Below are positions 2,215 through 18,807 of a DNA stretch of 64,000 nt, piece by piece. Position 1 is the stretch's first letter. The number at the start of each line of letters is the position of its first letter. The position numbers and the translations under genes were made by a program. The notes beneath the pieces were generated by a model. It did no database searches. It was not told the origin of the DNA and was given only the letters and a program-made list of their open reading frames with translations. The DNA is from Pseudomonadales bacterium (GTDB taxonomy: Bacteria; Pseudomonadota; Gammaproteobacteria; Pseudomonadales; Azotimanducaceae): contig OY843767.1 in assembly GCA_963693125.1 (NCBI GenBank), forward strand, positions 2,795,549 through 2,859,548, read 5' to 3'.

Positions 2215-3930
2215 ATGAATCCTGATCATCCCAATTGGTTCTCGTCAGTTCAGGCGCCTCAACGCATTGGTTCAAGCAGGGAAATTGACTGGGACCATGA
2301 AGTTGATTTTCTTGTCGCTGGTTTCGGTGGCGCCGGTGTTTCTGCCGCGCTAAGAGCCGTTGAGCAGGGGCTTGAAACAATGGTCATTGATAAATCTGCC
2401 GGTGGTGGTGCGACGCTGGCGAGCGGCGGGGTGCTGTATGCCGGTGGTGGCACATCCGTTCAGGCGTCTGTTGGTGAGGTCGATACCCCGGACAACATGT
2501 TCAACTACCTGAGGCTGGAGACAGGTGACATCGTCTCTGAAGAAACCCTGCGCCGGTTTTGTGAGAACAGTGCCGGGGATCTCGACTGGCTAATGTCACA
2601 TGGCGTTCAATTCAGCGGTCCTGTGTGGAAGCAGAAAACGTCCTATCCTGACGTGGCGTATTTTCTGTACCACTCTGACAACTCGCTGTTACCGGAATAT
2701 CAAAAACATGCCCGACCGGCCGCCAGAGGTCATCGAGGTGTGATTCGAAAAGGGCGCAGTGCGGTTGATCTGGGCGGTTCGATATTCAATCCACTCAGGC
2801 GGGCATGCCAGAGTCTTGGCGTTGGGATTCACACCGAGACATCAGTGGAACAGTTGATCTTCTCTACGGATGAGCAAAAGGTTGTGGGAGTTCGCGCGTG
2901 GCGATTTCCCCACAAGTCGTCTGCCCGCAAGAAGGCATCCCGATACAGGCGATTGGCTCGCGTGGTTCGATGGGTCTACCCATTTTTTTTACCGGGTGCC
3001 CAATATGTCCACCGGCTGGCAGATCGAATGAACCGGATGGTGGCTGATCTCGAAGCAACACATCGGGAAGCCGTTACCTATCGGGCCAGGGTTGGCGTAT
3101 GTATCAGCGCCGGAGGATTTATATTCAACAGACAGATGGTTGAATACTATTGCCCGGAATTTCTTGAAGGCATGCCCCTGGGCACACCGGCTGATGATGG
3201 CTCCGGCATCCGATTAGGGCAGAGTGTGGGTGGGGTCGTTGCACACATGAACCGCGCGACAGCCTGGCGCTTTGTTAATCCGCCACTTTCGTGGGCGCGG
3301 GGCATTATTGTGAACAGCAGGGGTGCGCGTTTTGTTAACGAGATGACCTATGGTGCGACCATTGGTGAAGCCCTTGTGCGGAAAGCTGGTGGCAGGGCAA
3401 CGCTGTTGCTCGACGGTGACCTTGTCAGGTCTGCATGGCGAGAAATCCGGCCGACCAGGGTTTTGCCGTTCCAGTGGCAACTTGGCATGTTGAATATGCT
3501 GTTTGGCATGAAAAAATTTGCTGACCTGCCGACAATCTGCCGACAGCTTGGATTTGAGCAAAACACGCTCTCGGCGACGCTGGCGCAGGTGCGGGCCGTG
3601 GCTGAAGGTTCGATTAGTGAACCCTTTGGCAAGCCTGACAGTGATGTTCCGGCGTTGAATTTTCCTCTCTATGCCATTGATGTTTCTCTGGATACGAAAC
3701 TGTTGCCCTGCGCCGTGCTCACCATGGGCGGGCTGAGGGTTAACGAAAACACCGGTGAAGTACTTGGCGAGCAGGGGGAGCCGGTCGGGGGACTCTATGC
3801 TGCGGGTCGGAGCGCGGTTGGGATTCCATCGAATCTGTACATGAGTGGTTTGTCAATCGCCGATTGTGTGTTTTCCGGATTAAGGGCGGCGGACCATGCC
3901 GCGTCACTGATAAAAGAGGGAACGACATAA
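2215..3930 (+). CDS. FAD-dependent oxidoreductase of the KstD / fumarate-reductase flavoprotein family (possible 3-ketosteroid dehydrogenase paralog)
   Basis: 571-aa ORF with N-terminal dinucleotide fold DFLVAGFGGAGVSAALRA. GGATLASGGVLYAGGG and the C-terminal GLYAAGR motif are typical of this family. Lies among steroid-cluster genes. Confidence 0.7.
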   Translation: MNPDHPNWFSSVQAPQRIGSSREIDWDHEVDFLVAGFGGAGVSAALRAVEQGLETMVIDKSAGGGATLASGGVLYAGGGTSVQASVGEVDTPDNMFNYLRLETGDIVSEETLRRFCENSAGDLDWLMSHGVQFSGPVWKQKTSYPDVAYFLYHSDNSLLPEYQKHARPAARGHRGVIRKGRSAVDLGGSIFNPLRRACQSLGVGIHTETSVEQLIFSTDEQKVVGVRAWRFPHKSSARKKASRYRRLARVVRWVYPFFLPGAQYVHRLADRMNRMVADLEATHREAVTYRARVGVCISAGGFIFNRQMVEYYCPEFLEGMPLGTPADDGSGIRLGQSVGGVVAHMNRATAWRFVNPPLSWARGIIVNSRGARFVNEMTYGATIGEALVRKAGGRATLLLDGDLVRSAWREIRPTRVLPFQWQLGMLNMLFGMKKFADLPTICRQLGFEQNTLSATLAQVRAVAEGSISEPFGKPDSDVPALNFPLYAIDVSLDTKLLPCAVLTMGGLRVNENTGEVLGEQGEPVGGLYAAGRSAVGIPSNLYMSGLSIADCVFSGLRAADHAASLIKEGTT

Positions 3931-3942
3931 TTACGCAGGTCG

Positions 3943-4731
3943 TCAAGACTTCGTCGGCGGAGACCCCGGCAGGTTTGGGAAGTAGATACCCGCAGTCATT
4001 CCGCCATCAATCGTGAGTTCTGTGCCGTTACAGTAGGCTGAAGCATCTGAAGCCAGGTAGACGGCGCCGTTGGCGATTTCTTCCGCCGATGAGCCGCGTT
4101 GCATGGGTACAAACTGATAGCCTTTATCCAGCTCTTCCTGGGATTCGCCAAGCGGATTGGTCATTGGCGTATTGACCCCGCCAGGGTGTATCGAATTGAC
4201 CCGAATACCCTGTGGTCCCAACTCAAGTGCCGCACCCCTGGTCAAGCCGCGAACAGCGAATTTGCTGGCGGCATAGCCGGAAATAAAATTGGATGGCTGT
4301 ATGCCGGAAGCGGAGGAAATATTGATAATGCTGCCGTGCCCCATTGCTTTCATATGCGGTATGACTGTCTGCATACCGAGCAGGGTGCCGGTTACGTTCA
4401 CATCAAGCATGTGCCGAAAGTTTTCAACGGCCAGTTCATCGACTGTGCCGAATGCGAGAACGCCGGCGTTATTGACCAGCACGTCCGGTGCACCAACACG
4501 CTGCACAATATCTGCAATGACATGCTGCCAGGAAGACTCACTGGTAACGTCTAATGACGCGCTGCTCATCCGGTCAGTTGATTTGAATGTCATCTCCTGG
4601 ATATCGCATCGAACGACGTGTTTGATACCCTGCTGAACAAAAGCTTCAGCAATCGCAGCGCCAATACCCCGGGCGGCGCCGGTGACAATAGCGACCTTTC
4701 CGGATAGATCAAACGGAGATAACCGGCTCAT
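3943..4731 (-). CDS. SDR family oxidoreductase (hydroxysteroid dehydrogenase-like)
   Basis: 262-aa ORF with TGAARGIGAA and YAASKFAV. 4-nt overlap with the upstream kstD-like gene. Confidence 0.85.
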   Translation of the reverse strand: MSRLSPFDLSGKVAIVTGAARGIGAAIAEAFVQQGIKHVVRCDIQEMTFKSTDRMSSASLDVTSESSWQHVIADIVQRVGAPDVLVNNAGVLAFGTVDELAVENFRHMLDVNVTGTLLGMQTVIPHMKAMGHGSIINISSASGIQPSNFISGYAASKFAVRGLTRGAALELGPQGIRVNSIHPGGVNTPMTNPLGESQEELDKGYQFVPMQRGSSAEEIANGAVYLASDASAYCNGTELTIDGGMTAGIYFPNLPGSPPTKS

Positions 4732-6422
4732 TGGTTTTGCGCCGCGTGATGAGCCGCCAGATAGCCGAATGTCATCGCTGGCCCCAGGGTGGACCCGGCA
4801 CCGGGGTAGGTGCGGCCCATGACGGATGCGCTGGTGTTACCGATGGCGTATAACCCTTTAATCGGCTGATGATCAGTGTTGAGCGCAACGCCGTTTTCAT
4901 CGGTGAGGATGCCGCCTTTGGTGCCAATATCGCCGGGGAAAATTTTGATCGCGTAGAACGGGGCTTTGCTCAATGGCGCAAGGCAGGGGTTCGGTTGGTT
5001 GCGTGGGTCGCCATAGTATCTGTCGTATCCGTTCACGCCGCGATGGAAGTCCGGATCTTCACCTTTGGCGGCATATTCGTTGAATCGGTTGAACGTTGCA
5101 TCCAGGACAGCGCTTTCAACACCAATCGCCTCAGCCAGTGCGGCAATACTTTCTCCTTTTTTCAGCATATCCCTGATGCTGGGCTTTAGTGCCCTGTCCA
5201 GCATGGGTGGTCCTGGGAAAATGGGTCCGACGGGGTACTGGTCACGATACCTGGCATCAAAAACAAACCATGATGGAATGGTGGCGCATTCGTCTGAATG
5301 CCGACGCATCATTTCGCCGCCGGCAACATGGTAGGAAGCAGACTCGTTCATGTAACGTTTGCCCTGTTGATTGATGATCATACATCCCGGCAGGCTTCTT
5401 TCGGCGAACGTGGGGCGTGCCCGGTCTTCGTCGCCAAACTTGAAGCAGGGCGCCCACCAGGCTGAATCCATGAACTCAAGGGCTGCGCCAATTTTCTCAG
5501 CCTCCTGAATGGCATCGCCGGTGTTGTTGTGCTGTGAACCTGACCATTGTGTTGAACTGATTTCGCCGAGGTTCCTGCGCCGCATCTCATCGTTTTGCTC
5601 GAAGCCACCTGCGGCCAGGATGACTCCTCTGCGAGCGGTAATCGCAATGCTCTGCCCGACATAATCGACCAAAGCCCCGGTCACCTGACCATTTTCGACA
5701 GTGAGTTCACGCAGAGATACACCCAGCCGTAAAGGTACCTGTCGTTCGTTCAGGGCACGACGCAGTTGTCCCAGCAGTGAGTTACCTGCCGTCAGGCGAC
5801 GGTCCCTGGGGGTTTTGTAACGCTGTGGCAGATCGAGATAATAGCGTGTCATGATTTTGAGCATCGTCCAGATCCAGCCGGGGCGGCGAGTGATCATGGG
5901 GCGGGCTTCACTAATCGTCCAATTCACTCTGCCAAATGCCTGAGCCGCACAATGCATGGGTTGCAGTGTTAAATAGTCAGGGCCCAGTTGACCGGCGGTC
6001 ATCGGCAATGGTTCGTGAGAGCGGTGTTCCTTCGCGCCTTCCAAATCCATGTGGTAGTCGGCGTAGGTGACTGATTGAAATTTTGTGCCGCATTTGTCTT
6101 CCAGAAAGTGAAGCATCCTGCTGGCATTGTTGATATAGGCACGGAGTCTGGACTCAGGAACCTCATCACCAATCAGACCGTGGAGATAGGCAAATGCCTC
6201 ATCGTGAGAGTCCGCAGCACCGGCCTGCTCCATGTGACGAGTGCAGGGTATCCAGAGTGTGCCGCCGGACGTGGCTGACGTTCCGCCCCACAGGTGCGCT
6301 TTTTCGATGATCAGTACCTTCAAGCCGAGTTCAGCGGCCGTGTTTGCCGCTGTCAGGGCACCGGCACCGGAGCCGACGACCAGCAGATCGGTATCCCAGT
6401 CGCCATTGTTGATATTCGTCAT
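4728..6422 (-). CDS. kstD: 3-oxosteroid 1-dehydrogenase-like flavoprotein
   Basis: 564-aa ORF with DLLVVGSGAGALTAA and WGGTSATSGGTLWIP. Size and motifs are typical of KstD. Confidence 0.75.
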   Translation of the reverse strand: MTNINNGDWDTDLLVVGSGAGALTAANTAAELGLKVLIIEKAHLWGGTSATSGGTLWIPCTRHMEQAGAADSHDEAFAYLHGLIGDEVPESRLRAYINNASRMLHFLEDKCGTKFQSVTYADYHMDLEGAKEHRSHEPLPMTAGQLGPDYLTLQPMHCAAQAFGRVNWTISEARPMITRRPGWIWTMLKIMTRYYLDLPQRYKTPRDRRLTAGNSLLGQLRRALNERQVPLRLGVSLRELTVENGQVTGALVDYVGQSIAITARRGVILAAGGFEQNDEMRRRNLGEISSTQWSGSQHNNTGDAIQEAEKIGAALEFMDSAWWAPCFKFGDEDRARPTFAERSLPGCMIINQQGKRYMNESASYHVAGGEMMRRHSDECATIPSWFVFDARYRDQYPVGPIFPGPPMLDRALKPSIRDMLKKGESIAALAEAIGVESAVLDATFNRFNEYAAKGEDPDFHRGVNGYDRYYGDPRNQPNPCLAPLSKAPFYAIKIFPGDIGTKGGILTDENGVALNTDHQPIKGLYAIGNTSASVMGRTYPGAGSTLGPAMTFGYLAAHHAAQNQ

Positions 6423-6579: not shown

Positions 6580-7662
6580 ATGCAATTTGAGTTCACAGAG
6601 GAACAAAAACTCATACAACAAATGTTGAATGAGTTTGCCAGTGAACATGGTACCAGCGAGCGGGTCCGCAGGGCGATGACCTCATCCCCGGGCTATGACC
6701 TGTCAACCTGGCGGGCAATGTCCGGTGAGCTGGGTTTGACGGGGCTATTGATAGACGGCGCCTGCGGTGGCCAGAATCTGGGTCTGGTTGAACTGGCTTT
6801 GATATTTGAGGCTCTGGGGCGAAGGTTGATACCATCGCCGTTGTTATCTTCAGCGGTCATCGGTGCAACGGTGATCGGTCTGTGGCCTGACGACAGGGTT
6901 AAGAAAGAATGGCTCCCAAAAGTCGCTACGGGGGAATGTCAGGTGGCAGTTGCCGCCCTGGATGGTGATGAAGCCCGGTTTGTGTTGTCCGCTGAATCCG
7001 CAGATCTGCTCTTGTTGGTCGATAGGTCACGCAATCATTCAACTCATGCGGTTGTGGCCGATGGGCCGGGACAGTTTGCCAACCTGGAGGTGTCGCGGTT
7101 GACGATGATGGATCAAACGCGGCCGATGTCACACATCAAAGTTAAAGGTGGTCTGCCCGATACCATGCTGGCGGAGGGCGATGAAGCGTCCACAGCATAC
7201 GGCACCGCAATGGATTTCGGTCGTATCGCGATTGCTGCGGAGGCGATTGGCGCTGCCCGCGAGTGTCTGGACCGAACGGTGGAATATGCAAAAGAACGTA
7301 TTCAGTTTGGGCGTCCCATTGGCAGCTTTCAGGCCGTGAAACACCAGCTTGCCGATATGATGGTTGTGATTGAGGCGGCAACATCAGCGGTGTACTTCGC
7401 GGCATGTAGTGCCAGTGAAGAGCCTGAAGGTAGAAGCCAGATGGCGGCGCTGGCAAAGGTTCAGGCGAGTGAGGCATTGTCTCATTGTGCCGCACGGATG
7501 ATTCAGTTACATGGTGGTATCGGTTTCACCTGGGAACACGATGCACATCTCTATTTCAAACGTGCGCGTGCGACAACAACACTGCTCGACAGCAACGATT
7601 CACTTGAAGAATCCATAGCGGACTCACTGGGCTTGTACCCGAAGAAGGGAGAAGCGGCATGA
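6580..7662 (+). CDS. Acyl-CoA dehydrogenase family protein (smaller partner of an overlapping ACAD pair)
   Basis: 360-aa ORF with ACAD-like N-terminal and C-terminal helical domains. 4-nt overlap with the next ACAD gene, as in steroid side-chain heteromeric FadE pairs. Confidence 0.8.
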   Translation: MQFEFTEEQKLIQQMLNEFASEHGTSERVRRAMTSSPGYDLSTWRAMSGELGLTGLLIDGACGGQNLGLVELALIFEALGRRLIPSPLLSSAVIGATVIGLWPDDRVKKEWLPKVATGECQVAVAALDGDEARFVLSAESADLLLLVDRSRNHSTHAVVADGPGQFANLEVSRLTMMDQTRPMSHIKVKGGLPDTMLAEGDEASTAYGTAMDFGRIAIAAEAIGAARECLDRTVEYAKERIQFGRPIGSFQAVKHQLADMMVVIEAATSAVYFAACSASEEPEGRSQMAALAKVQASEALSHCAARMIQLHGGIGFTWEHDAHLYFKRARATTTLLDSNDSLEESIADSLGLYPKKGEAA

Positions 7663-8846
7663 GGTTGGCGTTTACGGCGGAACAGGAAAAGTTCCGGTCT
7701 GAAGTCGCCGCCTGGCTGGACGGGCAACTGAGCGGCCCTTACCGGGATATTCGAGGCATTACCTCGCTAACAGCCGCACCGGAACGGCGGCGTGCCTGGG
7801 AGAAGACCCTGGGTGAAGCGGGCTGGAGCGCGATTGGCTGGCCTGAAAAATACGGCGGCAGAAATGCTGATTTGGCGCAGCAGGTGATTTTTGCGGAAGA
7901 ATACGCGCGGGCAGGAGCGCCCGGTCGCCTGGGACACATGGGTGTGGAGCTGGCCGGCCCAACCATTCTTGCCTTCGGCAGTGATGAACAAAAAGCGCGA
8001 TTCCTACCCGGAATTTCCGCCGGTGAAGAGATGTGGTGTCAGGGTTATTCTGAACCCGGCGCCGGCTCTGACCTTTCCAATGTACGGACCAAAGCGGCAC
8101 TTCAAGATGGTGCAAACGGAAAAGAGTGGGTCATTGAAGGTCAAAAAATCTGGACGTCACTCGCGCAGTTTGCCGAGTGGTGTTTTCTGGTCTGCAGAAC
8201 AACGCCCGGGAGCAAGGGCAGAGAGGGCCTTTCGTACCTGCTCGTTCCGATGCGTCAAGACGGCGTTGATATTCGACCGATCAGGCAAATCACCGGCGAG
8301 GCGGATTTCAACGAAGTGTTCTTCGACGGCGCGGTCACTGCGGCCGGGAACATTGTTGGAGAAGCCGGCAATGGCTGGCAGGTAGCGATGGGTACGCTGT
8401 CTTTTGAGAGGGGCGTATCAACACTGGCCCAACAGATGCAGTTTCGAAATGAACTGAATGCGATCATCAGGGCGGCAAATGAAAATGGCAGTTCGGCTGA
8501 TCCGGTCATTCGACGTCGCATTGCAAAATCCTGGCGTGGTTTACAGGCCATGCGGGCGAGTGCGCTCAGAATGTTGTCCGGAGCAGATTCCGGTCAGCTA
8601 AGCGGCCCTCAGTTTACTTACAAAATCTACTGGGCAAGCTGGCATCGCGAGTTGGGAGAACTTGCCATGGATGTGCTTGGGCAGGCGGGTGAGGTCGCCT
8701 CTGACGATTACCTGCCGGGGGACCTGCCTCGCATGTTCCTCTTTTCGCGTGCGGATACCATATACGCGGGCACTAACCAGATTCAGCGCAACGTGATTGC
8801 GGAGCGCGCACTGGGTCTGCCAAAGGAACCGCGAGGCGCACAATAA
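7659..8846 (+). CDS. Acyl-CoA dehydrogenase family protein (larger partner of the pair)
   Basis: 395-aa ORF with WCQGYSEPGAGSDL and IYAGTNQIQRNVIAE, both typical ACAD motifs. Confidence 0.85.
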   Translation: MRLAFTAEQEKFRSEVAAWLDGQLSGPYRDIRGITSLTAAPERRRAWEKTLGEAGWSAIGWPEKYGGRNADLAQQVIFAEEYARAGAPGRLGHMGVELAGPTILAFGSDEQKARFLPGISAGEEMWCQGYSEPGAGSDLSNVRTKAALQDGANGKEWVIEGQKIWTSLAQFAEWCFLVCRTTPGSKGREGLSYLLVPMRQDGVDIRPIRQITGEADFNEVFFDGAVTAAGNIVGEAGNGWQVAMGTLSFERGVSTLAQQMQFRNELNAIIRAANENGSSADPVIRRRIAKSWRGLQAMRASALRMLSGADSGQLSGPQFTYKIYWASWHRELGELAMDVLGQAGEVASDDYLPGDLPRMFLFSRADTIYAGTNQIQRNVIAERALGLPKEPRGAQ

Positions 8847-8883: not shown

Positions 8884-9621
8884 ATGAGTAGCTTACAGGG
8901 AAAAACCGTTCTGGTAACCGGCGCCGCCTCGGGCATTGGTGCGGCGGTTGTCGAGGAGTTAGTCAATGCGGGTGCTACCGTGCTTGCGGCAGACCGGGAG
9001 GAGGCGGACGAGTTGCCCCGGCCTCATCGCAGATTAATCGTTGATGTCAGCAATGAAGCGTCGGTTGAAAGTGCTTTTGAAGGTGTGACGACCCTGGATG
9101 GGTTGGTCAATGCCGCCGGTATAACAGAACAGGGTCCGATTCAAACCGTGGACATGGCGCAGTGGCAAAAAGTCATTGGCGTTAACCTGACTGGAACGAT
9201 GCTGATGGCCAGACATGCCACCAACTTGATGTTGCAAAACAAGCTGGCCGGTTCGATTGTCAACATTTCAAGCGCCTATGGTCTGACAGGTGGTCCCGGC
9301 AATGTTGCCTACAATGTATCGAAGTCGGGGGTCGCGCAGTTAACACGTTGCATGGCCGCTGACCTTGGGAGAAACAACATCCGGGTCAATGCGGTGTGCC
9401 CGGGTTACATAGAAACACCGATGACCGATATGCTGAAACATGCGGGCGCATTCAGGGATCAATTTGTCGCCATGCATCTTCTGCAGCGACCCGGATTGCC
9501 CGGGGAAGTCGCCAAAGCGATTTGTTTTCTGCTTTCAGATGACGCGTCGTATATATCCGGTGTCAACCTTCCCGTCGATGGTGGTTTCACCGCCGCCCAC
9601 ATGCCGCCGGTAAATCTATAA
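8884..9621 (+). CDS. SDR family oxidoreductase
   Basis: 245-aa ORF with TGAASGIGAA and YNVSKSG. A GGAGGA Shine-Dalgarno lies upstream. Confidence 0.85.
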   Translation: MSSLQGKTVLVTGAASGIGAAVVEELVNAGATVLAADREEADELPRPHRRLIVDVSNEASVESAFEGVTTLDGLVNAAGITEQGPIQTVDMAQWQKVIGVNLTGTMLMARHATNLMLQNKLAGSIVNISSAYGLTGGPGNVAYNVSKSGVAQLTRCMAADLGRNNIRVNAVCPGYIETPMTDMLKHAGAFRDQFVAMHLLQRPGLPGEVAKAICFLLSDDASYISGVNLPVDGGFTAAHMPPVNL

Positions 9622-9667
9622 TGTGTATAAAGATGGCCTGGCGTAAGAGATTGTGCTTTTTATCGCC

Positions 9668-10261
9668 CTATTCAAACGGACGATAATGTGGATGGTCTGC
9701 AATCGCCAGCATTTGTTTATCGCCACTACTATCACCGTATGCATGTATCACCTCATAATCATCAAGGGACAAACAGGCCTTGATGCGATCCACCTTTTCC
9801 TGGCCATGACAATTGGCGCCTTCAAATCGTCCGGTCAATATGCCACCTTGTTGTGCCATACGGGTACTTAACAATTCAAGCCCTTCTGCCTGGCAAAAGC
9901 CCTTGAGCCAGGTGTCAATTGATGCGGAGACCAAAATTACCCGATGACCCTGTGTCTTGTGCCAGCGCAGCTTTTCTATTGCTTTGGGCCTGATGATCCT
10001 GACGATCCGCGCTTTGGTATATTGTTCACCGAGTCGCTCAATTTTTTCAACCGTCCAGCCTTTGAAATAAAATCCAAGTAATTTTTCTTTGGCGACGTTG
10101 TTTTTCATCAGTTTCAATAGAAAAGCAGCCAGTATCGGACTCATAACCAACAAGCCCAGGTAATAACGTGGTTTGCCCACGGCATATTGAATAAAATCCA
10201 ATAACGAGTCTTTGGTCGTTATGGTGCCGTCAAAGTCGAACAGTGCCAGTTCTTTTTTCAC
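9668..10261 (-). CDS. HAD-IB family phosphatase (last gene of the island operon)
   Basis: 197-aa ORF with GTG start. HAD motif I FDFDGTIT and C-terminal GDSSGD. Confidence 0.8.
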   Translation of the reverse strand: MKKELALFDFDGTITTKDSLLDFIQYAVGKPRYYLGLLVMSPILAAFLLKLMKNNVAKEKLLGFYFKGWTVEKIERLGEQYTKARIVRIIRPKAIEKLRWHKTQGHRVILVSASIDTWLKGFCQAEGLELLSTRMAQQGGILTGRFEGANCHGQEKVDRIKACLSLDDYEVIHAYGDSSGDKQMLAIADHPHYRPFE

Positions 10262-10295
10262 CGGAAATAATTCCCTGTCAGTACCCTTCGGTTCA

Positions 10296-11957
10296 CTAAT
10301 TGGAGTTGATCATCTGGTAATAAGACAGACGGTTTTTCGGTTCAAAACTATCTTTAAGCAGTTGTGCCATTGACGACGATATCCCCAATGACTTCTTAAA
10401 AGCGTATATGTGACGATGAGTCCCATCTTCTTTATAATCGACTAAATAAATATCATAGTCATCATACTGGCTTTGTAAGAATTCAATGCTTACGGTAGCC
10501 GCTAAAGAAACCTTTGAAAGCCCAGATCGCTGAGCGTCAGTGGGTGGACTTTTTAGTTTGAAATGTTGCTTATTGTTGTCAGTCACAGGGAGCACCTTTT
10601 CACCGGATACCACCAACGGTGCAGGGTCAATTTGGCGATTGTGATGAAACAGTATGACATCTGGTGACAGTTGTTTCATGTATTGCACATCAATAATGTT
10701 TTTGGCCGGGTACACCGAATTAAGCCCCACCAGATCAACCAAAACATGCCCCCCCCCCCCCCCGATATTGATTCCATTCCAGTATGAAAAGCGCCCTGCT
10801 TCTGTTACTGCTATGGTCAAATCCTTCGGCAGCTTATCGTGCATGGTGTAAGAGGCCCGATTGAAATAGCTAAAAGTCGTCACTTTCATCGACTTGTTGA
10901 CATGATACCCGGCAATGACAACAAAGCCGACTAAATAGACCACCAGCCCCTTCGATAACAGGGCACCAGCTTTCTGTTCTTTGAATCTGGCCAGCAAAAG
11001 CTGTACCAGGACAAAATAGGCCACGATAAATATCGGTGCCTGAAATCTGTAACCGATATTTTGCGATTGATGGACCATCGTCAATGCCACAAATAGCAAT
11101 ATCAGCGGAGACATCAGAACCAGATAGTGCGTTATTTTTTTCGACATGAGTAACAATAAGGCACAGGGTAAGAAGGTATAAAGGTTGGAAACGCCCCATC
11201 TCAGGTTGGTTCTCACGCTCTCGGTTAAATCGGTATGGCCTTTAACATACAAGGGTAACGGCAACAAATTACCAAAGTAATGATAGCGCCAGACGAAATA
11301 AACAACCCCGATAACAAACGCAACTGACATGCCGAGCAGGTAGGTTTTGAATTGCCTGCGCTTATAGACCCTGACCAGACCTGTCAAGGTAAATGCCACG
11401 CCCATGATCACCCCATCGGGCCTGAATAGTGCAATGATAATGGCCAGGTAAGGCACTTTGCTCAGGTGTTCTTCCCGGCTGGTGGCGACAAACGTCAGCA
11501 ATACCAACGCCATATACAAATAGACACTAAAACCGCTCACGGCAGCACGCAGTGGTAATTGCACTGCCCACAATACAACAAACAGACTCATCAAACCGAT
11601 GGTTTTTTTATCCGTCAGTTGTGTACGCATAATTTCATGGGATATCACAGTGGTGATGATGCCCACGCCAACGGAGTTGAGTAAAATCGCCGAGGTGCCG
11701 ACATCCAATCCACTGAGCCCGACTCCAGCCAGCAATAGCAGCCATAAAAAATCTGTTGCCCCTTCTGCACGAGGACCACCAGGATAATAACTAATACCAT
11801 TACCACTGAGTATATTGTCTACATAAATAAACAATATGTAGGCATCTTCATGAAAGTGCCCGTTAGAGATCAGCCACAGGTTATATATAAAAAATACCGA
11901 GGCGCCAACGACACCAATCAACCACAACTTTGCTGGCGAATGCTCAACTGGATTCAT
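10296..11957 (-). CDS. Polytopic membrane protein, GT-C-like candidate arabinofuranosyltransferase, tandem paralog 1 (carries G15 tract)
   Basis: 553-aa ORF. About 10 hydrophobic spans fill residues 10-350, with an acidic HEDAY motif right after TM1. A ~200-aa C-terminal soluble domain follows. Sits directly downstream of the DPA-type donor genes. Confidence 0.65.
   Translation of the reverse strand: MNPVEHSPAKLWLIGVVGASVFFIYNLWLISNGHFHEDAYILFIYVDNILSGNGISYYPGGPRAEGATDFLWLLLLAGVGLSGLDVGTSAILLNSVGVGIITTVISHEIMRTQLTDKKTIGLMSLFVVLWAVQLPLRAAVSGFSVYLYMALVLLTFVATSREEHLSKVPYLAIIIALFRPDGVIMGVAFTLTGLVRVYKRRQFKTYLLGMSVAFVIGVVYFVWRYHYFGNLLPLPLYVKGHTDLTESVRTNLRWGVSNLYTFLPCALLLLMSKKITHYLVLMSPLILLFVALTMVHQSQNIGYRFQAPIFIVAYFVLVQLLLARFKEQKAGALLSKGLVVYLVGFVVIAGYHVNKSMKVTTFSYFNRASYTMHDKLPKDLTIAVTEAGRFSYWNGINIGGGGGHVLVDLVGLNSVYPAKNIIDVQYMKQLSPDVILFHHNRQIDPAPLVVSGEKVLPVTDNNKQHFKLKSPPTDAQRSGLSKVSLAATVSIEFLQSQYDDYDIYLVDYKEDGTHRHIYAFKKSLGISSSMAQLLKDSFEPKNRLSYYQMINSN
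10749..10763 (-). repeat. Homopolymeric G15 (C15 on plus strand) inside paralog 1, encoding GGGGG
   Basis: Counted directly: cc at 10749-50, ten c at 10751-60 and ccc at 10761-63. Paralogs 2 and 3 have only ggggg at the equivalent site. Confidence 0.9.
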
Positions 11958-11978
11958 AGATTCATGCCCTTCGGTTCA

Positions 11979-13625
11979 CTAATTGGAACTGATCATTTGG
12001 TAATAAGACAGATGGTTTTTCGGTTCAAAACTATCTTTAAGCAGTTGTGCCATTGACGACGATATCCCCAGCGACTTCTTAAAAGCGTATATGTGAGAAC
12101 GAAGCTCATCTTCAGGACGATAGATTAAATAAATATCATAGTCATCATACTGGCTTTGTAAGAATTCAATGCTTACAGTAGCCGCTAAAGAAACCTTTGA
12201 AAGCCCAGGTCGCTGAGCGTCAGTGGGTGGACTTTTTGGTTTGAAATGTTGCTTATTGTTGTCAGTCAGAGGGAGCACCTTTTCACCGGATACCACCAAC
12301 GGTGCAGGGTCAATTTGGCGAGCGTGATGAAACAGTATGACATCTGGTGACAGTTGTTTCATGTATTGCACATCAATAATGTTTTTGGCCGGGTACACCG
12401 AATTAAGCCCCACCAAATCAACCAAAACATGGCCCCCGGATTGATTCCAGTATGAAAAGCGTCCTGCTTTTGTTACTGCTATGGTCAAATCCTTCGGCAG
12501 CTTATCGTGCATGGTGTAAGGTACCAGATCCCTATGGTTAGAAGTCGTCATTTCCATCGACTTGTTGACATGATACCCGGCAATGACAACAAAGCCGACT
12601 AAATAGACCATCAGCCCCTTCGATAACAGGGCACCAGCTTTCTGTTCTTTGAATCTGGCCAGCAAAAGCTGTACCAGGACAAAATAGGCCACGATAAATA
12701 TCGGTGCCTGAAATCTGTAACCGATATTTTGCGATTGATGGACCATCGTCAATGCCACAAATAGCAATATCAGCGGAGACATCAGAACCAGATAGTGCGT
12801 TATTTTTTTCGACATGAGTAACAATAAGGCACAAGGCAAGAAGGTATAAAGGTTGGAAACACCCCATCTCAGGTTGGCTTTCACGCTCTCGGTTAAATCG
12901 GTATGGCCTTTAACATACAAGGGTAACGGCAACAAATTACCAAAGTAATTATAGCGCCAGACGAAATAAACAATCCCGATAACAAACGCAATTAACATGC
13001 CGAGCAGGTAGGTTTTGAATTGCCTGCGCTTATAGACCCTGACCAGACCTATCAGGGTAAATGCCACGCCCATGATCACCCCATCGGGCCTGAATAGCGC
13101 AATGATAATGGCCAGATAAGGCACTTTGCTCAGGTGTTCTTCCCGGCTGGTGGCGACAAACGTCAGCAATACCAACGCCATATACAAATAGACACTAAAA
13201 CCGCTCACGGCAGCACGCAGTGGTAATTGCACCGCCCACAATACAACAAACAGACTCATCAAACCGATGGTTTTTTTATCCGTCAACTGTGCACGCATAA
13301 TTTCATGGGATATAACAGTGGTGATGATGCCCACGCCAACGGAGTTGAGTAAAATCGCCGAGGTGCCGACATCCAATCCACTGAGCCCGACTCCAGCCAG
13401 CAATAGCAGCCATAAAAAATCTGTTGCCCCTTCTGCACGAGGACCACCAGGATAATAACTAATGCCATTACCACTGAGTATATTGTCTACATAAATAAAC
13501 AATATGTAGGCATCTTCATGAAAGTGCCCGTTAGAGATCAGCCACAGGTTATATATAAAAAATACCGAGGCGCCAACGACACCAATCAACCACAACTTTG
13601 CCGGCGACTGCTCAACTGGATTCAT
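11979..13625 (-). CDS. Polytopic GT-C-like membrane protein, tandem paralog 2
   Basis: 548-aa ORF. By eye it has only ~10 differences from paralog 1 in the first ~350 residues. Confidence 0.65.
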   Translation of the reverse strand: MNPVEQSPAKLWLIGVVGASVFFIYNLWLISNGHFHEDAYILFIYVDNILSGNGISYYPGGPRAEGATDFLWLLLLAGVGLSGLDVGTSAILLNSVGVGIITTVISHEIMRAQLTDKKTIGLMSLFVVLWAVQLPLRAAVSGFSVYLYMALVLLTFVATSREEHLSKVPYLAIIIALFRPDGVIMGVAFTLIGLVRVYKRRQFKTYLLGMLIAFVIGIVYFVWRYNYFGNLLPLPLYVKGHTDLTESVKANLRWGVSNLYTFLPCALLLLMSKKITHYLVLMSPLILLFVALTMVHQSQNIGYRFQAPIFIVAYFVLVQLLLARFKEQKAGALLSKGLMVYLVGFVVIAGYHVNKSMEMTTSNHRDLVPYTMHDKLPKDLTIAVTKAGRFSYWNQSGGHVLVDLVGLNSVYPAKNIIDVQYMKQLSPDVILFHHARQIDPAPLVVSGEKVLPLTDNNKQHFKPKSPPTDAQRPGLSKVSLAATVSIEFLQSQYDDYDIYLIYRPEDELRSHIYAFKKSLGISSSMAQLLKDSFEPKNHLSYYQMISSN

Positions 13626-13685
13626 AGATTCATGCCCTTAAACTTCCATTGCAGTATGGTTCATCTATCAATGCCTTTCAGTTCA

Positions 13686-15332
13686 CTAATTGGAACTGAT
13701 CATTTGGTAATAAGGCAGACGGTTTTTCGGTTCAAAACTATCTTTAATCAATTGTGCCATTGACGACGATATCCCCAGTGATTTCTTAAAAGCGTATATG
13801 TAAGAAAAAAACTCATTTCCAGAATGATAGACTAAGTAAATATCATAGTCATCATACCGGCTTTGCAAGAATTCAATGCTTACAGTAGCCGCTAAAGAAG
13901 CCTTTGAAAGCCCAGGTCGCTGAGCGTCAGTGGGTGGCCTTTTTAGTTTGAAATGCTGCATATTGTTGTCAGTCAGAGGGAGCACCTTTTCACCGGGTAC
14001 CACCAAAGGTGTAGGGTCAATATGGTAATATTGATGAACCATCATGACATCTGGTGACAGTTGTTTCATGTATTGCATATCAATAGTGTTTTTGGCCGGA
14101 TACACAGAATTAAGCCCCACCAAATCAACCAAAACATGGCCCCCGGATTGATTCCAGTATGAAAAGTGCCCGGCTTCTGTTACTGCTATGGTCAAATCCT
14201 TTGGCAGCTTATCGTGCATGGTGTAAGGGGCTTTATTGCCATGGTGAAAAGTCACCGCATACATCGACTTGTTGACATGATACCCGGCAATGACAACAAA
14301 GCCGACTAAATAGACCACCAGCCCCTTCGATAACACGGCACCAGCTTTCTGTTCTTTGAATCTGGCCAACAAAAGCTGTACCAGGACAAAATAGGCCACG
14401 ATGAATATCGGTGCTTGAAATCTGTAACCGATATTTTGCGATTGATGGACCATCGTCAATGCCACAAATAGCAATATCAGCGGAGACATCAAAACCAGAT
14501 AGTGCGTTATTTTTTTCGACATAAGTAACAATAAGGCACAGGGTAAGAAGGCATAAAGGTTGAAAACGCCCCATCTCAGATTGGTTTTCACGCTCTCGAT
14601 TAAATCGGTATGGCCTTTAACATACAGGGGTAACGGCAACAAATTACCAAAGTAATGATAGCGCCAGACGAAATAAACAACCCCGATAACAAACACAATT
14701 AACATACCGAGTACGTAGGTTTTGAATTGCCTGCGCTTATAGACCCTGACCAGACCTATCAGGGTAAATGCCACGCCCATGATCACCCCATCGGGCCTGA
14801 ATAGCGCAATGATAATGGCCAGATAAGGCACTTTGCTCAGGTGTTCTTCCCGGCTGGTGGCGACAAACGTCAGCAATACCAACGCCATATATAAATAGAC
14901 ACTATGGCCGCCCACGGCAGCAACCAGTGGTGATTGCACCGCCCACAATACAACAAACAGACTCATCAAACCGATGGTTTTCTTATCCGTCAGTTGTGCA
15001 CGCATAATTTCATGGGATATCACAGTGGTGATGATGCCCACGCCAACGGAGTTGAGTAAAATCGCCGAGGTGCCGACATCCAATCCACTGAGCCCGACTC
15101 CAGCCAGCAATAGCAGCCACAGAAAATCTGTTGCCCCTTCCGCATGAGGACCACCGGGATAATAACTAATACCATTACCACTGAGTATATTGTCTACATA
15201 AATAAACAATATGTAGGCATCTTCATGAAAGTGCCCGTTAGAGATCAGCCACAGGTTATATATAAAAAATACCGAGGCGCCAACGACACCAATCAACCAC
15301 AACTTTGCGGGTGACTGCTCAACTGGAGTCAT
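13686..15332 (-). CDS. Polytopic GT-C-like membrane protein, tandem paralog 3
   Basis: 548-aa ORF. Its start overlaps the dprE2-like stop by 4 nt (ATGA). Confidence 0.65.
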   Translation of the reverse strand: MTPVEQSPAKLWLIGVVGASVFFIYNLWLISNGHFHEDAYILFIYVDNILSGNGISYYPGGPHAEGATDFLWLLLLAGVGLSGLDVGTSAILLNSVGVGIITTVISHEIMRAQLTDKKTIGLMSLFVVLWAVQSPLVAAVGGHSVYLYMALVLLTFVATSREEHLSKVPYLAIIIALFRPDGVIMGVAFTLIGLVRVYKRRQFKTYVLGMLIVFVIGVVYFVWRYHYFGNLLPLPLYVKGHTDLIESVKTNLRWGVFNLYAFLPCALLLLMSKKITHYLVLMSPLILLFVALTMVHQSQNIGYRFQAPIFIVAYFVLVQLLLARFKEQKAGAVLSKGLVVYLVGFVVIAGYHVNKSMYAVTFHHGNKAPYTMHDKLPKDLTIAVTEAGHFSYWNQSGGHVLVDLVGLNSVYPAKNTIDMQYMKQLSPDVMMVHQYYHIDPTPLVVPGEKVLPLTDNNMQHFKLKRPPTDAQRPGLSKASLAATVSIEFLQSRYDDYDIYLVYHSGNEFFSYIYAFKKSLGISSSMAQLIKDSFEPKNRLPYYQMISSN

Positions 15333-16060
15333 ATACTCATGCCCTTAAACTTCCATTCAGGAATGGATTTTATGATCAGCATGATGTACTTCCAAATCCA
15401 GCGACAATACAACTCATTACGATTGCCCTGTTGGGCTGTAAAAATCGCCTTTGCAACTTCTTCCGGCTCTGCTGTAAGTTTTTCCGGCAGGCCCATACCT
15501 TTGGTCATCCTGGTGTTAACAAAGCCAGGTTTAACAGTCAAAACACGCACCTTGTGATCATGCAGACGGTTGCGTAGACCGGATAAATAGGTGGTCAGGG
15601 CAGCCTTGGCAGAACCATATAGATAATTGGCCTTACGTCCGCGATCGCCTGCCACCGAACTGATACCAACGATGAACCCTGAACGGCGTGCCGCAAAATC
15701 ATCTGCGATGATATTAAGCATACTGACCACCGAAGTGTAATTGGTGTCTAGAATTGTTCTTGCTTCAACAAAATCGCTTTGCGCTTTTTCCTGGTCGCCC
15801 AGATAACCCACAGCACTTATCACACCCAGGGGCTTTTCCTCCAGGCTATCGTAAAATGCCTGATGGTTGTCAAAATCCAGCATATCCAACTCCGCACACC
15901 TGACCTTGCGACCAAAACGCACAGAAATATCCTGCGCCAATGGCTCAAGGCTACCCGCTTGTCGAGCCGCCAGATACAGGTCGTAACCATTCTCGGCATA
16001 TTGCCGCGCCAGGGCCCTGGCGATATCACTTTTGGCGCCAATTATTAATATGTAACCCAT
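15329..16060 (-). CDS. dprE2: DprE2-like SDR (polyprenylphospho-2-keto-pentofuranose reductase)
   Basis: 243-aa ORF. ISSVAGDRGRKANYLYGSAKAAL, VRVLTVKPGFVNTRM and the C-terminal IPEWKFK tail resemble M. tuberculosis Rv3791 as I recall it. Confidence 0.7.
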   Translation of the reverse strand: MGYILIIGAKSDIARALARQYAENGYDLYLAARQAGSLEPLAQDISVRFGRKVRCAELDMLDFDNHQAFYDSLEEKPLGVISAVGYLGDQEKAQSDFVEARTILDTNYTSVVSMLNIIADDFAARRSGFIVGISSVAGDRGRKANYLYGSAKAALTTYLSGLRNRLHDHKVRVLTVKPGFVNTRMTKGMGLPEKLTAEPEEVAKAIFTAQQGNRNELYCRWIWKYIMLIIKSIPEWKFKGMSI

Positions 16061-16061
16061 G

Positions 16062-17360
16062 TTATAGCTCTAGTCGTTTCGATTGCATGGAATGAAAAGT
16101 TTTGTTCATTTGGTATTTGCATCGCAGGGCCCGGAATTTATCGACGTCTGGATAACCCTGCTCAAAAACCTGCCTGGATACCCGGGCATCCTTGGCCAGA
16201 TATATTCGACCGCCATGAGCCAACACAATTTCGTCAAGTTTATCAAGCAGGGTAAAAAGACCCGGCTCTATTTTGAAATCGAGTGCCAATGAATACCCTT
16301 CCAGTGGGAAAGACAGGTAATTTTCATTCGCAGGACCGTACAACTTGAGCACGGCTAAAAAAGAGCCCTTGCCTGAGTCAGCAATCGTTTTTAGAATTAC
16401 CGACAAGCCTTCAAAACTGGCTTCTTTGGGTAGAATAAATTGATACTGGGTAAAACCATTTTTTCCGTAAATCCGATTCCAATGACCCACAGCATCGAGC
16501 GGAAAGAAGAAACTGTCGATAGACACCTTTTGCTCACTTACCGCCGCTTTGACTTTGCCGTAATATAGCCAGTTAAACGACTTCACCGACAGGGTATTGA
16601 GAGCAAAACCCGGAAGACTAAAAGGCACCGCTGGTTTGCTACTACTTTTATAGTCAAGTTTGCCCTTGGGCAAAAAATCGCCCACCCTCAGCAGGCAGCG
16701 ACCAATATCCGCGCCTTTGGCCAGACAATCAATCCAGGCGACTGAATAAGGGCTGTCAGCGTACTGCTCAAAAGCCTCGAACGTCTCACGTAAATTGGCT
16801 GTTTTAATGGTCGTTTGCCCTATCGTTTTAGCGCCAATTCGTTTGAGTCTGATACGTGCATCAAGCACAATACCTGTCAATCCCATCCCACCACAGGTAG
16901 CATGAAACAAGTCACTGTGCTCGGTGGCAGAGCAGGTCACGATATCACCATTGGGTAACATCAAGCGAAAATCCACCAGGAATTGACTAAAACAACCTGC
17001 CTGATGATGATTTTTGCCATGAACGTCACTGGCAATAGCACCACCGACGGTGATAAGTTTTGTGCCAGGTACCACCTGGAGAAACCAACCTTTGGGCACT
17101 ATAGAACGGATGATATCCGCCAGTAAGACACCGGATTGAACATGCAACACACCCAATTGGTCATCAAAGTGCAAAAACAGATCTCTCGGTCGCATTTGCA
17201 CCATGGCCCTGCTCAGCGCACTGTCGCCATAACTTCGTCCATTACCATAGGCAATTAACGCATTGTGCTCACGTAACATGGTACGCAATTGATCTAAATC
17301 ATCGAATTTCAATGCCTGACCATCACAGGTCGGATAATTGCCCCAACTACGTAAGTTCAT
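16062..17360 (-). CDS. dprE1: DprE1-like FAD-dependent polyprenylphosphoribose 2'-oxidase
   Basis: 432-aa ORF. GNGRSYGDSAL, PGTKLITVGGAIASDVHGKNHH, FTQYQFILP, and C-terminal GGRIYLAKDARV...SKRLEL parallel Rv3790 as I recall it. Confidence 0.75.
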   Translation of the reverse strand: MNLRSWGNYPTCDGQALKFDDLDQLRTMLREHNALIAYGNGRSYGDSALSRAMVQMRPRDLFLHFDDQLGVLHVQSGVLLADIIRSIVPKGWFLQVVPGTKLITVGGAIASDVHGKNHHQAGCFSQFLVDFRLMLPNGDIVTCSATEHSDLFHATCGGMGLTGIVLDARIRLKRIGAKTIGQTTIKTANLRETFEAFEQYADSPYSVAWIDCLAKGADIGRCLLRVGDFLPKGKLDYKSSSKPAVPFSLPGFALNTLSVKSFNWLYYGKVKAAVSEQKVSIDSFFFPLDAVGHWNRIYGKNGFTQYQFILPKEASFEGLSVILKTIADSGKGSFLAVLKLYGPANENYLSFPLEGYSLALDFKIEPGLFTLLDKLDEIVLAHGGRIYLAKDARVSRQVFEQGYPDVDKFRALRCKYQMNKTFHSMQSKRLEL

Positions 17361-17755
17361 GCAGCCTGCTCCGTGAAGACATATTTTCTATCGAGAAAAT
17401 ATTTCATCACATAACCGACAGATAGCCCGATCGCAGCCCCGACATATTTGGCCGCTTCATGATCAAAGTACCAGTCAAACCAAATTTCGGTGCCCCAAAA
17501 AATGAAAGTCGTGAAACCACCCGTCAAAGTATAAGAAACAAACTTCCTGGCGTCCTGAGTTTTAGACGTTGGTTTATGATGGAAAATAAACTTTTTGTCG
17601 AGCACATATTTACATACAAGTCCGGCACCTGTACCATTACACATGGCCAAAACCAGGCCCCCGGTGCCGTCATAAACCCACAGGCTGAGGTACTGGAACA
17701 ACAAATTAAGTAAAATAGAGACAATCGCAAACAGGGTATATTTAAAGGCTATCAT
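17357..17755 (-). CDS. GtrA family membrane protein (Rv3789-like)
   Basis: 132-aa ORF with four hydrophobic spans. Overlaps both neighbours by 4 nt. Confidence 0.7.
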   Translation of the reverse strand: MIAFKYTLFAIVSILLNLLFQYLSLWVYDGTGGLVLAMCNGTGAGLVCKYVLDKKFIFHHKPTSKTQDARKFVSYTLTGGFTTFIFWGTEIWFDWYFDHEAAKYVGAAIGLSVGYVMKYFLDRKYVFTEQAA

Positions 17756-18693
17756 TGGTAAATGATCCAGCCAAAAGAAGCCACCCAGCCAACAATGGTG
17801 AGTTGCAAAAATGTATCTTTGAGTACTATGCGGGTCGGCGAACCACTGTCTTTTTCAACAAAGGCGATTTGTAGGTAGCGCAAGATACCCAACATCACAA
17901 AAAATGCTGTGAGGTAAAGATATTCACTATGCCATTTGGCAGTGACATCGCCAGACGTGGTGTATTGAATATACGAAACAATCACCACTGTTGCTGTGAT
18001 CATCATCGCCACATCGATAAATTGCAAATTATAACCATCGATAACCGTGCGCATTTTTTTGCCGGTATCGAGAAAAATAAGGGTATCGTCACGGCGCTTG
18101 GCCAATGCCATGAAAAGGGCCAGCAGAAAAGTTATGATCACTATCCACATCGACAAATGAATACCGGTAACAACAGAGCCGACAAATAACCGCAATACAA
18201 ATCCGATAGCAATAATGTACACATCGATTATGGCAATGTGTTTTAAATGAAAACTGTAAGCGATGTTCATCACCACATAAGCCAGTAAAATGGCACCGGC
18301 CTGCAATGAGGCTGAAGCGATAAGTCCCCCCCCAACAATAAACAACGAGGTCATTAATATCAGCGCTACCTTACTTGTGACAGCGCCACTGGCCAAAGGT
18401 CGAAAGCGCTTTTCAGGATGCTGACGGTCATCTTCGATATCGCAATAATCGTTAACAATATAAATACCACTGGCACATATACAAAACGCAGCAAATGCCA
18501 AAAAGGACTGCCCAAGAAGCGCCATATTTTGAATATTGCCGGAAAAAAACAAAGGCAGAAAAATAAACAGGTTTTTAATGTATTGATGCGGACGCATCAG
18601 TTTAATGATGTGCTTCATGAATGATGATTCTTGCCTGAATGAGCTTTTGAAACTACTGGCTTTTGCTTGTTTGCCAGGGAGCCGTAACTTCAT
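17752..18693 (-). CDS. UbiA-family polyprenyl-phosphate 5-phosphoribosyltransferase (Rv3806c-like); start uncertain (18693, 18618 or TTG 18726)
   Basis: NDYCDIEDDRQHPEKRFRPLASG is the DPPR-synthase-type first Asp-rich motif. MRPHQYIKNLFIF forms the N-terminal helix. The protein is polytopic. The ATG at 18693 has TAAGG 8 nt upstream. Confidence 0.75.
   Translation of the reverse strand: MKLRLPGKQAKASSFKSSFRQESSFMKHIIKLMRPHQYIKNLFIFLPLFFSGNIQNMALLGQSFLAFAAFCICASGIYIVNDYCDIEDDRQHPEKRFRPLASGAVTSKVALILMTSLFIVGGGLIASASLQAGAILLAYVVMNIAYSFHLKHIAIIDVYIIAIGFVLRLFVGSVVTGIHLSMWIVIITFLLALFMALAKRRDDTLIFLDTGKKMRTVIDGYNLQFIDVAMMITATVVIVSYIQYTTSGDVTAKWHSEYLYLTAFFVMLGILRYLQIAFVEKDSGSPTRIVLKDTFLQLTIVGWVASFGWIIYQ
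18326..18333 (-). repeat. G8 homopolymer inside the ubiA-like gene (codons VGGG)
   Basis: Plus strand reads taagt-cccccccc-aacaata. It translates as IVGGGLI on the minus strand. Confidence 0.9.
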
Positions 18694-18807
18694 AGAAACC
18701 TTATAGATAAACGGCTTCAAATTCAAGCAAAATGGGCATGACGATGCACCGATGGCGGACGAACTGTTTCCCTCCGCAGGTTACCAGTATGTGCTCTATG
18801 GTATGGG

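Follow-up and report, generated by a model that had tools for sequence, protein, structure and literature searches.

We report a 15-nucleotide (nt) poly-G tract in the terminal copy of a tandem glycosyltransferase array from an uncultured environmental Pseudomonadales-like gammaproteobacterium (GTDB: Azotimanducaceae). The tract lies in a 64,000-nt stretch of contig OY843767.1 (assembly GCA_963693125.1, positions 2,795,549 to 2,859,548), hereafter the window, and all coordinates below refer to this stretch. Among closely related strains the tract differs in length, and most of its expanded forms shift the reading frame of a gene that is otherwise intact. Based on these observations, we consider it likely, with a probability of roughly 0.7, that the tract is hypermutable and acts as a slipped-strand ON/OFF switch of the glycosyltransferase, in line with the phase variation that had been proposed in a preliminary description of the window.

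Identification of the poly-G tract

The tract (10749..10763) is located on the minus strand, where it reads G15 (C15 on the plus strand), and it occupies codons 399-403 of paralog 1 (10296..11957, minus strand). This gene encodes a 553-amino-acid (aa) AftB-like glycosyltransferase of the GT-C fold, is the last of three tandem paralogs and adjoins a HAD phosphatase gene. The tract begins at 72% of the length of the open reading frame (ORF), is in frame and encodes GGGGG. It is unbroken and is the sole homopolymer longer than 9 nt within the window, the next-longest G/C run being a C8 at 18326-18333, and only ~0.01 G/C runs of 15 nt are expected in dinucleotide-preserving shuffles. The tract is real and non-random. 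GC content is 0.43-0.47 around the tract compared with ~0.55 in the flanks.

At the homologous site, paralogs 2 and 3 both read CAATCC-GGGGG-CCAT. Relative to these copies, paralog 1 is 15 nt longer, with 9 nt gained in the tract itself (G5C to G15) and 6 nt gained in the stretch immediately 5' of it (10764..10775, minus strand). In this stretch TGGAAT-CAATCC has become TGGAAT-GGAATCAATATC, such that 12 nt replace the ancestral CAATCC, and the net gain corresponds to a 5-nt duplication of GGAAT plus 1 nt. The rearranged stretch was found in the window strain alone among the haplotypes compared. The sequence bears out what the preliminary description had stated about this site, namely an uninterrupted, in-frame C15 encoding five glycines, a local GC content of ~43% and an unexpanded gggggcc in copies 2 and 3. 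With an uninterrupted G/C homopolymer of at least 8 nt inside a reading frame (C15 in the ORF at 10296-11957), paralog 1 carries the sequence feature that is characteristic of contingency loci.

Tract length among related haplotypes

Close relatives of the paralogs all came from one ENA metagenome assembly (ERZ22155170). The comparison set comprised nine syntenic haplotypes from this assembly and the window, giving ten haplotypes with 27 paralog copies. Top alignments of the nine haplotypes to the window were 95.7-98.5% identical, and the haplotypes were at most 99% identical to one another.

The HAD-adjacent copy is G15, in frame and 553 aa long in the window, but it is out of frame in four relatives, where the tract is G8 (L006, 422 aa), G14 (L010, 424 aa), G16 (L013, 425 aa) or G24 (L011, 408 aa). 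In the other five haplotypes (L001, L007, L008, L009 and L012), the corresponding copy carries an unexpanded G5, is in frame and is full length. Across the whole set the site is unexpanded in 22 of 27 copies, reading G5 or, in one instance, G4A, and G5 is the ancestral state. All five expanded copies adjoin the HAD gene and no two have the same tract length (8, 14, 15, 16 and 24), so that the same site is length-polymorphic among close strains (the five expanded haplotypes are 97-99% identical to one another). A comparison of tract length across strains had been proposed as a check on the switch, with a fixed length divisible by three as the outcome that would speak against it; instead, G8, G14, G16 and G24 were found in four of the nine relatives, always in the same HAD-proximal copy and always out of frame.

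No pair of near-identical haplotypes differing by the tract alone was present among the ten. We also considered whether the short contig L011 is an alternative assembly of L010, which would amount to heterogeneity within a strain, and rejected this based on their identity of only 98%.

The expanded alleles share a single-nucleotide polymorphism (SNP) 16 nt 3' of the tract. This synonymous T>C change (coding sense; G at 10733 on the plus strand) creates a GATC (10733..10736); all five expanded alleles have it and all 22 unexpanded copies lack it. The window allele otherwise has the backbone of L001 copy 3 (97-100% identical around the site), whereas the other four expanded alleles have a different backbone in common. 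Linkage of the SNP with expansion across two backbones points to either a short conversion tract or a common origin. Because the expanded alleles sit on different backbones, the tract-bearing segment may have been moved between alleles by conversion, or it may have arisen twice.

In other collections, a scan of JGI metagenomes with a flank-anchored variable-gap pattern gave no match, the population evidently being absent from that collection, and a contig scan of GTDB representatives, which do not include this species, recovered distant relatives only (Thiomicrorhabdus, 41%; Arenicella, 33%).

Frame consequences and state of the out-of-frame alleles

When tract length was varied in silico in the window allele, lengths of 9, 12, 15, 18 and so on gave a full-length protein, whereas G14 gave a product of 426 aa and G16 one of 407 aa. 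This agrees with the earlier expectation that a gain or loss of 1 nt would truncate paralog 1 after residue ~400. In the four natural out-of-frame alleles (hereafter OFF alleles), the 393 codons upstream of the tract contain no stop, and in the shifted frame the ~150 codons downstream of it can be read through to the normal stop. As both sides of the tract remain open, the tract is the only lesion in these alleles, and its change in length shifts the frame of an otherwise intact gene to give products of 408-425 aa.

Upstream of the tract, 27 of the sites segregating among the four OFF alleles are synonymous and 25 are nonsynonymous (per-site ratio 0.29, one-sided binomial p ~9e-6), and downstream of it 7 are synonymous and 8 are nonsynonymous (ratio 0.32, p ~0.03). 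The nonsynonymous deficit downstream, in the part of the gene that is untranslated when OFF, suggests that OFF alleles spend time ON.

These patterns can be set against neutral decay, in which the last paralog is dispensable, a chance change of G5C to G6 or more created a mutable run, and frameshifts mark the beginning of pseudogenization with no use as a switch. Consistent with decay, four of the five expanded alleles are out of frame, five haplotypes are without the tract and the array ranges from two copies (L008 and L012) to four (L009) among the ten haplotypes. On a further ENA contig of 305,114 bp, one paralog is split into fragments of 211 and 177 aa (proteins P0253 and P0254) through damage that does not involve the G tract, with a frameshift at around residue 340 and the N-terminus missing, which indicates that copies in this population are also lost by ordinary pseudogenization. 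However, none of the four OFF alleles has a second lesion over ~1.6 kb, and nonsynonymous polymorphism is depleted among them even downstream of the frameshift. In addition, the window allele is in frame, and the +5 and +1 indels upstream of its tract compensate for each other, which suggests that the frame has been kept or restored. Overall, we regard neutral decay as unlikely.

Structure and diversification of the glycosyltransferase paralogs

Paralog 2 (11979..13625, minus strand) and paralog 3 (13686..15332, minus strand) each encode 548 aa, are 93% and 89% identical to paralog 1 at the protein level, respectively, and carry G5 at the tract site. Neither the paralogs nor 66 family members had a match in Pfam or NCBIfam, and a search of a large protein collection returned 272 relatives, almost all of them without a name. 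An AlphaFold2 model of paralog 1, built from a 66-sequence alignment (predicted local distance difference test score, pLDDT, 93.8; predicted template modelling score, pTM, 0.93), has ~11 transmembrane (TM) helices (residues 1 to ~355) followed by a periplasmic alpha/beta domain (356-553). This predicted layout is that of a multi-helix GT-C membrane module with an extracytoplasmic domain. Using Foldseek against the PDB, the best match was AftB (9dlf_C, E 2.8e-6), followed by ALG12, PglB, AftA and ArnT, and the top matches were all GT-C glycosyltransferases.

A profile of the family searched against PDB sequences likewise matched AftB and nothing else, with a weak E value of 0.038. In the profile alignment, E37-D38 falls on the D61-D62 motif of AftB and R179 falls on R221, with D38 and R179 invariant in 66 family sequences. 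In AftB, D62 is catalytic and R221 is essential (PMC12041299), and by this alignment D38 and R179 would be the catalytic Asp and the phosphate-binding Arg. With a profile E value of 0.038 and no Pfam or NCBIfam match, the paralogs fall outside the AftB family and every curated GT-C model by sequence. Because the structural match comes without a significant sequence match, we describe them as AftB-like by fold and active-site layout and not as AftB-family members. The glycosyltransferase assignment of the preliminary description holds in this more specific form. The paralogs most likely encode periplasmic D-arabinofuranosyltransferases, and the operon context together with a conserved neighbourhood in Arenicella (see below) points to polyprenyl-phosphate-D-arabinofuranose as their donor.

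Diversification within the array differs between the two parts of the protein. Pooled over 21 intact copies, the ratio of nonsynonymous to synonymous polymorphism (pN/pS) is 0.23 for the membrane module and 0.63 for the C-terminal periplasmic domain, and positions with at least three residue states cluster at 358-367, 435-442 and 508-514. Taken with the range of 2-4 copies, these substitution patterns look like those of an array in which acceptor recognition is being diversified and in which the tract additionally places the terminal copy under stochastic control.

The tract encodes part of a loop that joins the conserved motifs TEAGRxxYWN and DLVGLN, and no other block of the C-terminal domain has lower confidence in the AlphaFold2 model than this loop. 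Given the position of the loop and its low model confidence, in-frame expansion is plausibly tolerated. By contrast, a frameshift deletes D408, G411, L412, N413 and the remainder of the C-terminal domain. Because the periplasmic domain of AftB contributes to the substrate cavity (PMC12041299), loss of function is the likely result of truncation.

Variation of this loop could also matter in its own right, at the level of the protein or the RNA: in-frame changes may tune a poly-glycine loop in the acceptor-binding domain, or slippage of RNA polymerase may make the OFF alleles leaky. The window allele is in frame, its loop is 5 residues longer and the domain that contains the loop diversifies between paralogs (pN/pS 0.63 versus 0.23), and tracts of 14-24 nt are long enough in principle for transcriptional slippage. 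Nonetheless, only one of the five expanded alleles is in frame, and the 65 other family members keep the loop to a narrow 4-8 residues, with 13 residues found only in paralog 1 of the window. As far as we know, transcriptional slippage has been well documented at A/T runs but not at G/C runs. We consider a role of this kind very unlikely.

Robustness of the switch interpretation

A sequencing or assembly artefact is highly improbable, be it an error of base calling or consensus or a chimeric join between tandem repeats that are nearly identical. In favour of an artefact, long homopolymers are the main class of error in long-read consensus sequences, the tandem paralogs have 89-93% protein identity and the related contigs have names (ctgNNNNNl) that resemble long-read assembler output, as judged from the naming only. 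Against it, expansion occurs at the same nucleotide position of the same copy in five independent contigs and with a linked SNP, the lengths of 8 to 24 are far outside an error of ±1, the ~20 kb aligned to each relative contain very few indels beyond the tract and none in other homopolymers, and both flanks are colinear with the orthologous allele L001_c3 (97-100% identity). The homopolymer assembly artefact that the preliminary description had offered as an alternative was thus not borne out.

Several other points weigh against a switch. Every contig in the comparison stems from the single assembly ERZ22155170. That four of the five expanded alleles are OFF, with five haplotypes lacking the tract, is also compatible with the loss of a dispensable copy. 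Gene conversion from intact paralogs in the array could mimic purifying selection in the OFF alleles, and because it could give the same pattern we treat the selection signal as supportive, not decisive. Any one consensus length could be off by 1 nt, which would flip its ON/OFF call, that of the window included. The truncated product retains the entire transmembrane catalytic module, and in the GT136 enzyme ORF12 a C-terminal carbohydrate-binding module is dispensable for catalysis (PMC11127046), so that OFF may not necessarily be null. Finally, a promoter and terminator scan gave results at or below shuffle expectation and was uninformative on operon boundaries.

Operon and genomic context

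The genes from 18618 down to 9668 are all on the minus strand and either overlap or are separated by gaps of at most 60 nt. The first gene (17752..18618, with the ATG start set as in related loci) encodes a UbiA-family polyprenyl-phosphate phosphoribosyltransferase (NF008978, 223.9 bits, cut-off 207), and it is followed by a gene for a small membrane protein of the GtrA family (17357..17755; NF037976, 157 bits, above cut-off) that is a candidate flippase for a lipid-linked sugar. Downstream of these are genes for a DprE1-like flavin adenine dinucleotide (FAD) oxidase (16062..17360), with a full-length match to NF053785 (2.9e-115, 386 bits versus a cut-off of 500), and a DprE2-like short-chain dehydrogenase (15329..16060), with a full-length match to NF053786 (7.8e-49, 166.6 bits versus an equivalog cut-off of 250) and a match to NF005489 above its cut-off. 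After the three paralogs, the operon ends with the gene for a HAD-IB phosphatase (9668..10261; PF12710, 3e-35; TIGR01490, above cut-off), which starts 34 nt downstream of paralog 1.

In mycobacteria, a gene set of this kind makes polyprenyl-phosphate-D-arabinofuranose. For the glycans of Gram-negative bacteria, a three-component scheme of periplasmic pentofuranose modification is known (PMC11127046), and its components are found here in one locus, with a UbiA-type phosphoribosyltransferase and a phosphatase, a flippase candidate (GtrA) and a GT-C enzyme. Based on genomic context and this precedent, the HAD-IB protein is a candidate polyprenyl-phospho-ribose-5-phosphate phosphatase. Together, the GT-C fold and the pathway genes point to a role of the locus in surface glycans.

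A similar arrangement exists in an Arenicella sp. metagenome-assembled genome (JBKEFT010000008.1; L003:3976-11512), where ~2 kb separate a GT-C homologue with 33% identity from a UbiA-GtrA-DprE1-DprE2-HAD cassette whose proteins are 48-51% identical to those of the window. This proximity indicates that the GT-C family and the pathway have remained associated across genera. Within 10 kb of the GT-C homologue in Thiomicrorhabdus (L002), none of the pathway genes was found.

The UbiA-type gene contains the C8 run at 18326-18333 (G8 in the coding sense), which is present in this strain only and is long enough to be slippage-prone. It originated by substitutions in three successive Gly codons (GGA GGT GGG to GGG GGG GGA). 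We rejected this run as a second switch, its length being unchanged in every strain compared; because it arose by substitutions without a change in length, there is no evidence of switching at this site.

The operon forms a ~9-kb low-GC island (9600-18800; GC 0.43-0.48 versus ~0.55) that is inserted among genes resembling those of steroid or lipid catabolism, a placement that is kept in all related haplotypes. These genes encode a KshA-like Rieske oxygenase (18808-20034), an adenosine monophosphate (AMP) ligase (19940-21583), acyl-CoA dehydrogenases (6580-8846) and KstD-like FAD_binding_2 flavoproteins (2215-3930 and 4728-6422). Scans of the window for Rfam families and tRNAs gave no matches. 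For a housekeeping peptidase, the closest relative with a name comes from a metagenome-assembled ‘Pseudomonadales bacterium’ (81% identity). In some haplotypes, the region is flanked or interrupted by transposase genes of the DDE_Tnp_1, ISL3, DDE_3 and HTH_23 types (L001:20987-21650; L010:1-262 and 20755-21275; L012:3646-4824 and 12385-13233), and in L012 the HAD gene is followed by an additional gene for an EamA transporter. The structure of this neighbourhood is plastic from strain to strain.

Proposed mechanism

In the ON/OFF switch that we favour, slippage of strands during replication would add G's to the tract or remove them, and the change would be reversible within a lineage. In-frame lengths (9, 12, 15, 18 and so on) would yield a full-length enzyme whose periplasmic domain has a small number of additional glycines in a surface loop. 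At other lengths, translation would end at approximately residue 405-430, most of the conserved C-terminal domain would be missing and the activity of paralog 1 would presumably be lost. With both truncating and full-length tract lengths present, the population would consist of a mixture of cells or strains with and without the paralog 1 transferase. Different surface glycoforms would be expected as a result, since it is chiefly in their acceptor-side, periplasmic domain that the paralogs diverge.

The transferases are predicted to use a polyprenyl-phosphate-arabinofuranose donor supplied by the co-transcribed UbiA, GtrA, DprE1-like, DprE2-like and HAD genes. A polar effect of the frameshift on the downstream HAD gene is a plausible prediction: premature termination could also lower expression of the phosphatase and leave less donor for all three transferases. 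Switching of one paralog, expansion and contraction of the array, and gene conversion may jointly diversify glycoforms, presumably against phages or grazers. The nature of the sugar and of its acceptor belongs to the predictions of the proposed scheme, as does any advantage to the cell, for example evasion of phages or grazers. Tentatively, and with somewhat less than even odds in our judgement, the locus could be the first example of a simple-sequence switch in a GT-C enzyme and a Gram-negative D-arabinofuranose pathway, in a free-living uncultured host, that acts jointly with array change and gene conversion to generate glycoform diversity in the wild.

Comparison with known systems

Contingency loci in glycan genes include poly-G tracts in the lgt and pgl genes of Neisseria, poly-C tracts in the fucosyltransferase genes of Helicobacter and loci in Haemophilus. 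In Campylobacter jejuni, poly-G tracts are found in lipooligosaccharide, capsule and flagellin-glycan genes, for example Cj1295 (PMC3068675; PMC3025981). The tract in paralog 1 resembles these loci in being an intragenic G/C homopolymer of at least 8 nt that differs in length between close strains and toggles the frame of an intact glycan gene, and in belonging to a multi-gene glycan locus that, from its low GC content, appears to be horizontally acquired. In contrast to the cytoplasmic Leloir enzymes of the GT-A and GT-B folds in pathogens, the gene affected here encodes a membrane GT-C enzyme with a lipid-linked donor. The tract is also late (72%), at the start of the periplasmic domain, such that OFF leaves the catalytic membrane module in place. 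Furthermore, the host is an uncultured environmental Pseudomonadales-like gammaproteobacterium and not a pathogen, and a single tract is found in the available sequence where pathogens have a genome-wide set.

With AftB (PDB 9dlf and 9dlh; PMC12041299), paralog 1 shares ~11 TM helices, a C-terminal periplasmic alpha/beta domain, aligned Asp and Arg residues and a genomic context that supplies a donor of the polyprenyl-phosphate-arabinofuranose type. It differs from AftB in its low sequence identity (~15%), its Gram-negative host and the tandem triplication with variation in copy number.

Among Gram-negative pentofuranose systems, the closest parallels are the three-component system of the Citrobacter youngae O-antigen (ORF12-15, GT136; Kelly et al. 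2024, PMC11127046) and the D-arabinofuranose system of Pseudomonas aeruginosa group IV pilin (TfpW and PsPA7_6245-6251; bioRxiv 10.1101/2020.04.19.049825). Common elements are a UbiA-type phosphoribosyltransferase, a phosphatase, a small flippase candidate and a periplasmic GT-C enzyme. A DprE1/DprE2-type 2'-epimerase pair, which predicts arabinofuranose, has candidate counterparts here in the DprE1-like and DprE2-like proteins, whose full-length matches score below the equivalog cut-offs. Unlike in those systems, the flippase candidate is of the GtrA and not the MATE type, a HAD-IB protein of its own takes the place of the phosphatase, and the GT-C enzyme belongs to an unannotated family with 2-4 diversifying copies, which we set beside GT136 and TfpW by description. 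A simple-sequence switch was not reported for the pentofuranose systems in either of these two studies (PMC11127046; bioRxiv 10.1101/2020.04.19.049825). Our literature search for a phase-variable GT-C enzyme and for environmental contingency loci revealed no direct precedent.

Biological significance

These results probably extend the logic of contingency loci to an uncultured environmental gammaproteobacterium, a membrane GT-C enzyme and an arabinofuranose pathway resembling that of mycobacteria. Almost all contingency loci known so far come from host-adapted pathogens and concern cytoplasmic Leloir glycosyltransferases. The analysis also flags a widespread and unannotated GT-C family (>270 relatives, with no Pfam model) as probable pentofuranosyltransferases. 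Gene callers would label alleles such as those described here as truncated ‘pseudogenes’ unless homopolymer switches are considered. In the present case, allelic tract lengths are directly visible among co-occurring strains of one metagenome, and the locus would, if borne out by reads, be a concrete and testable example of how surface glycans can switch stochastically within a natural population.

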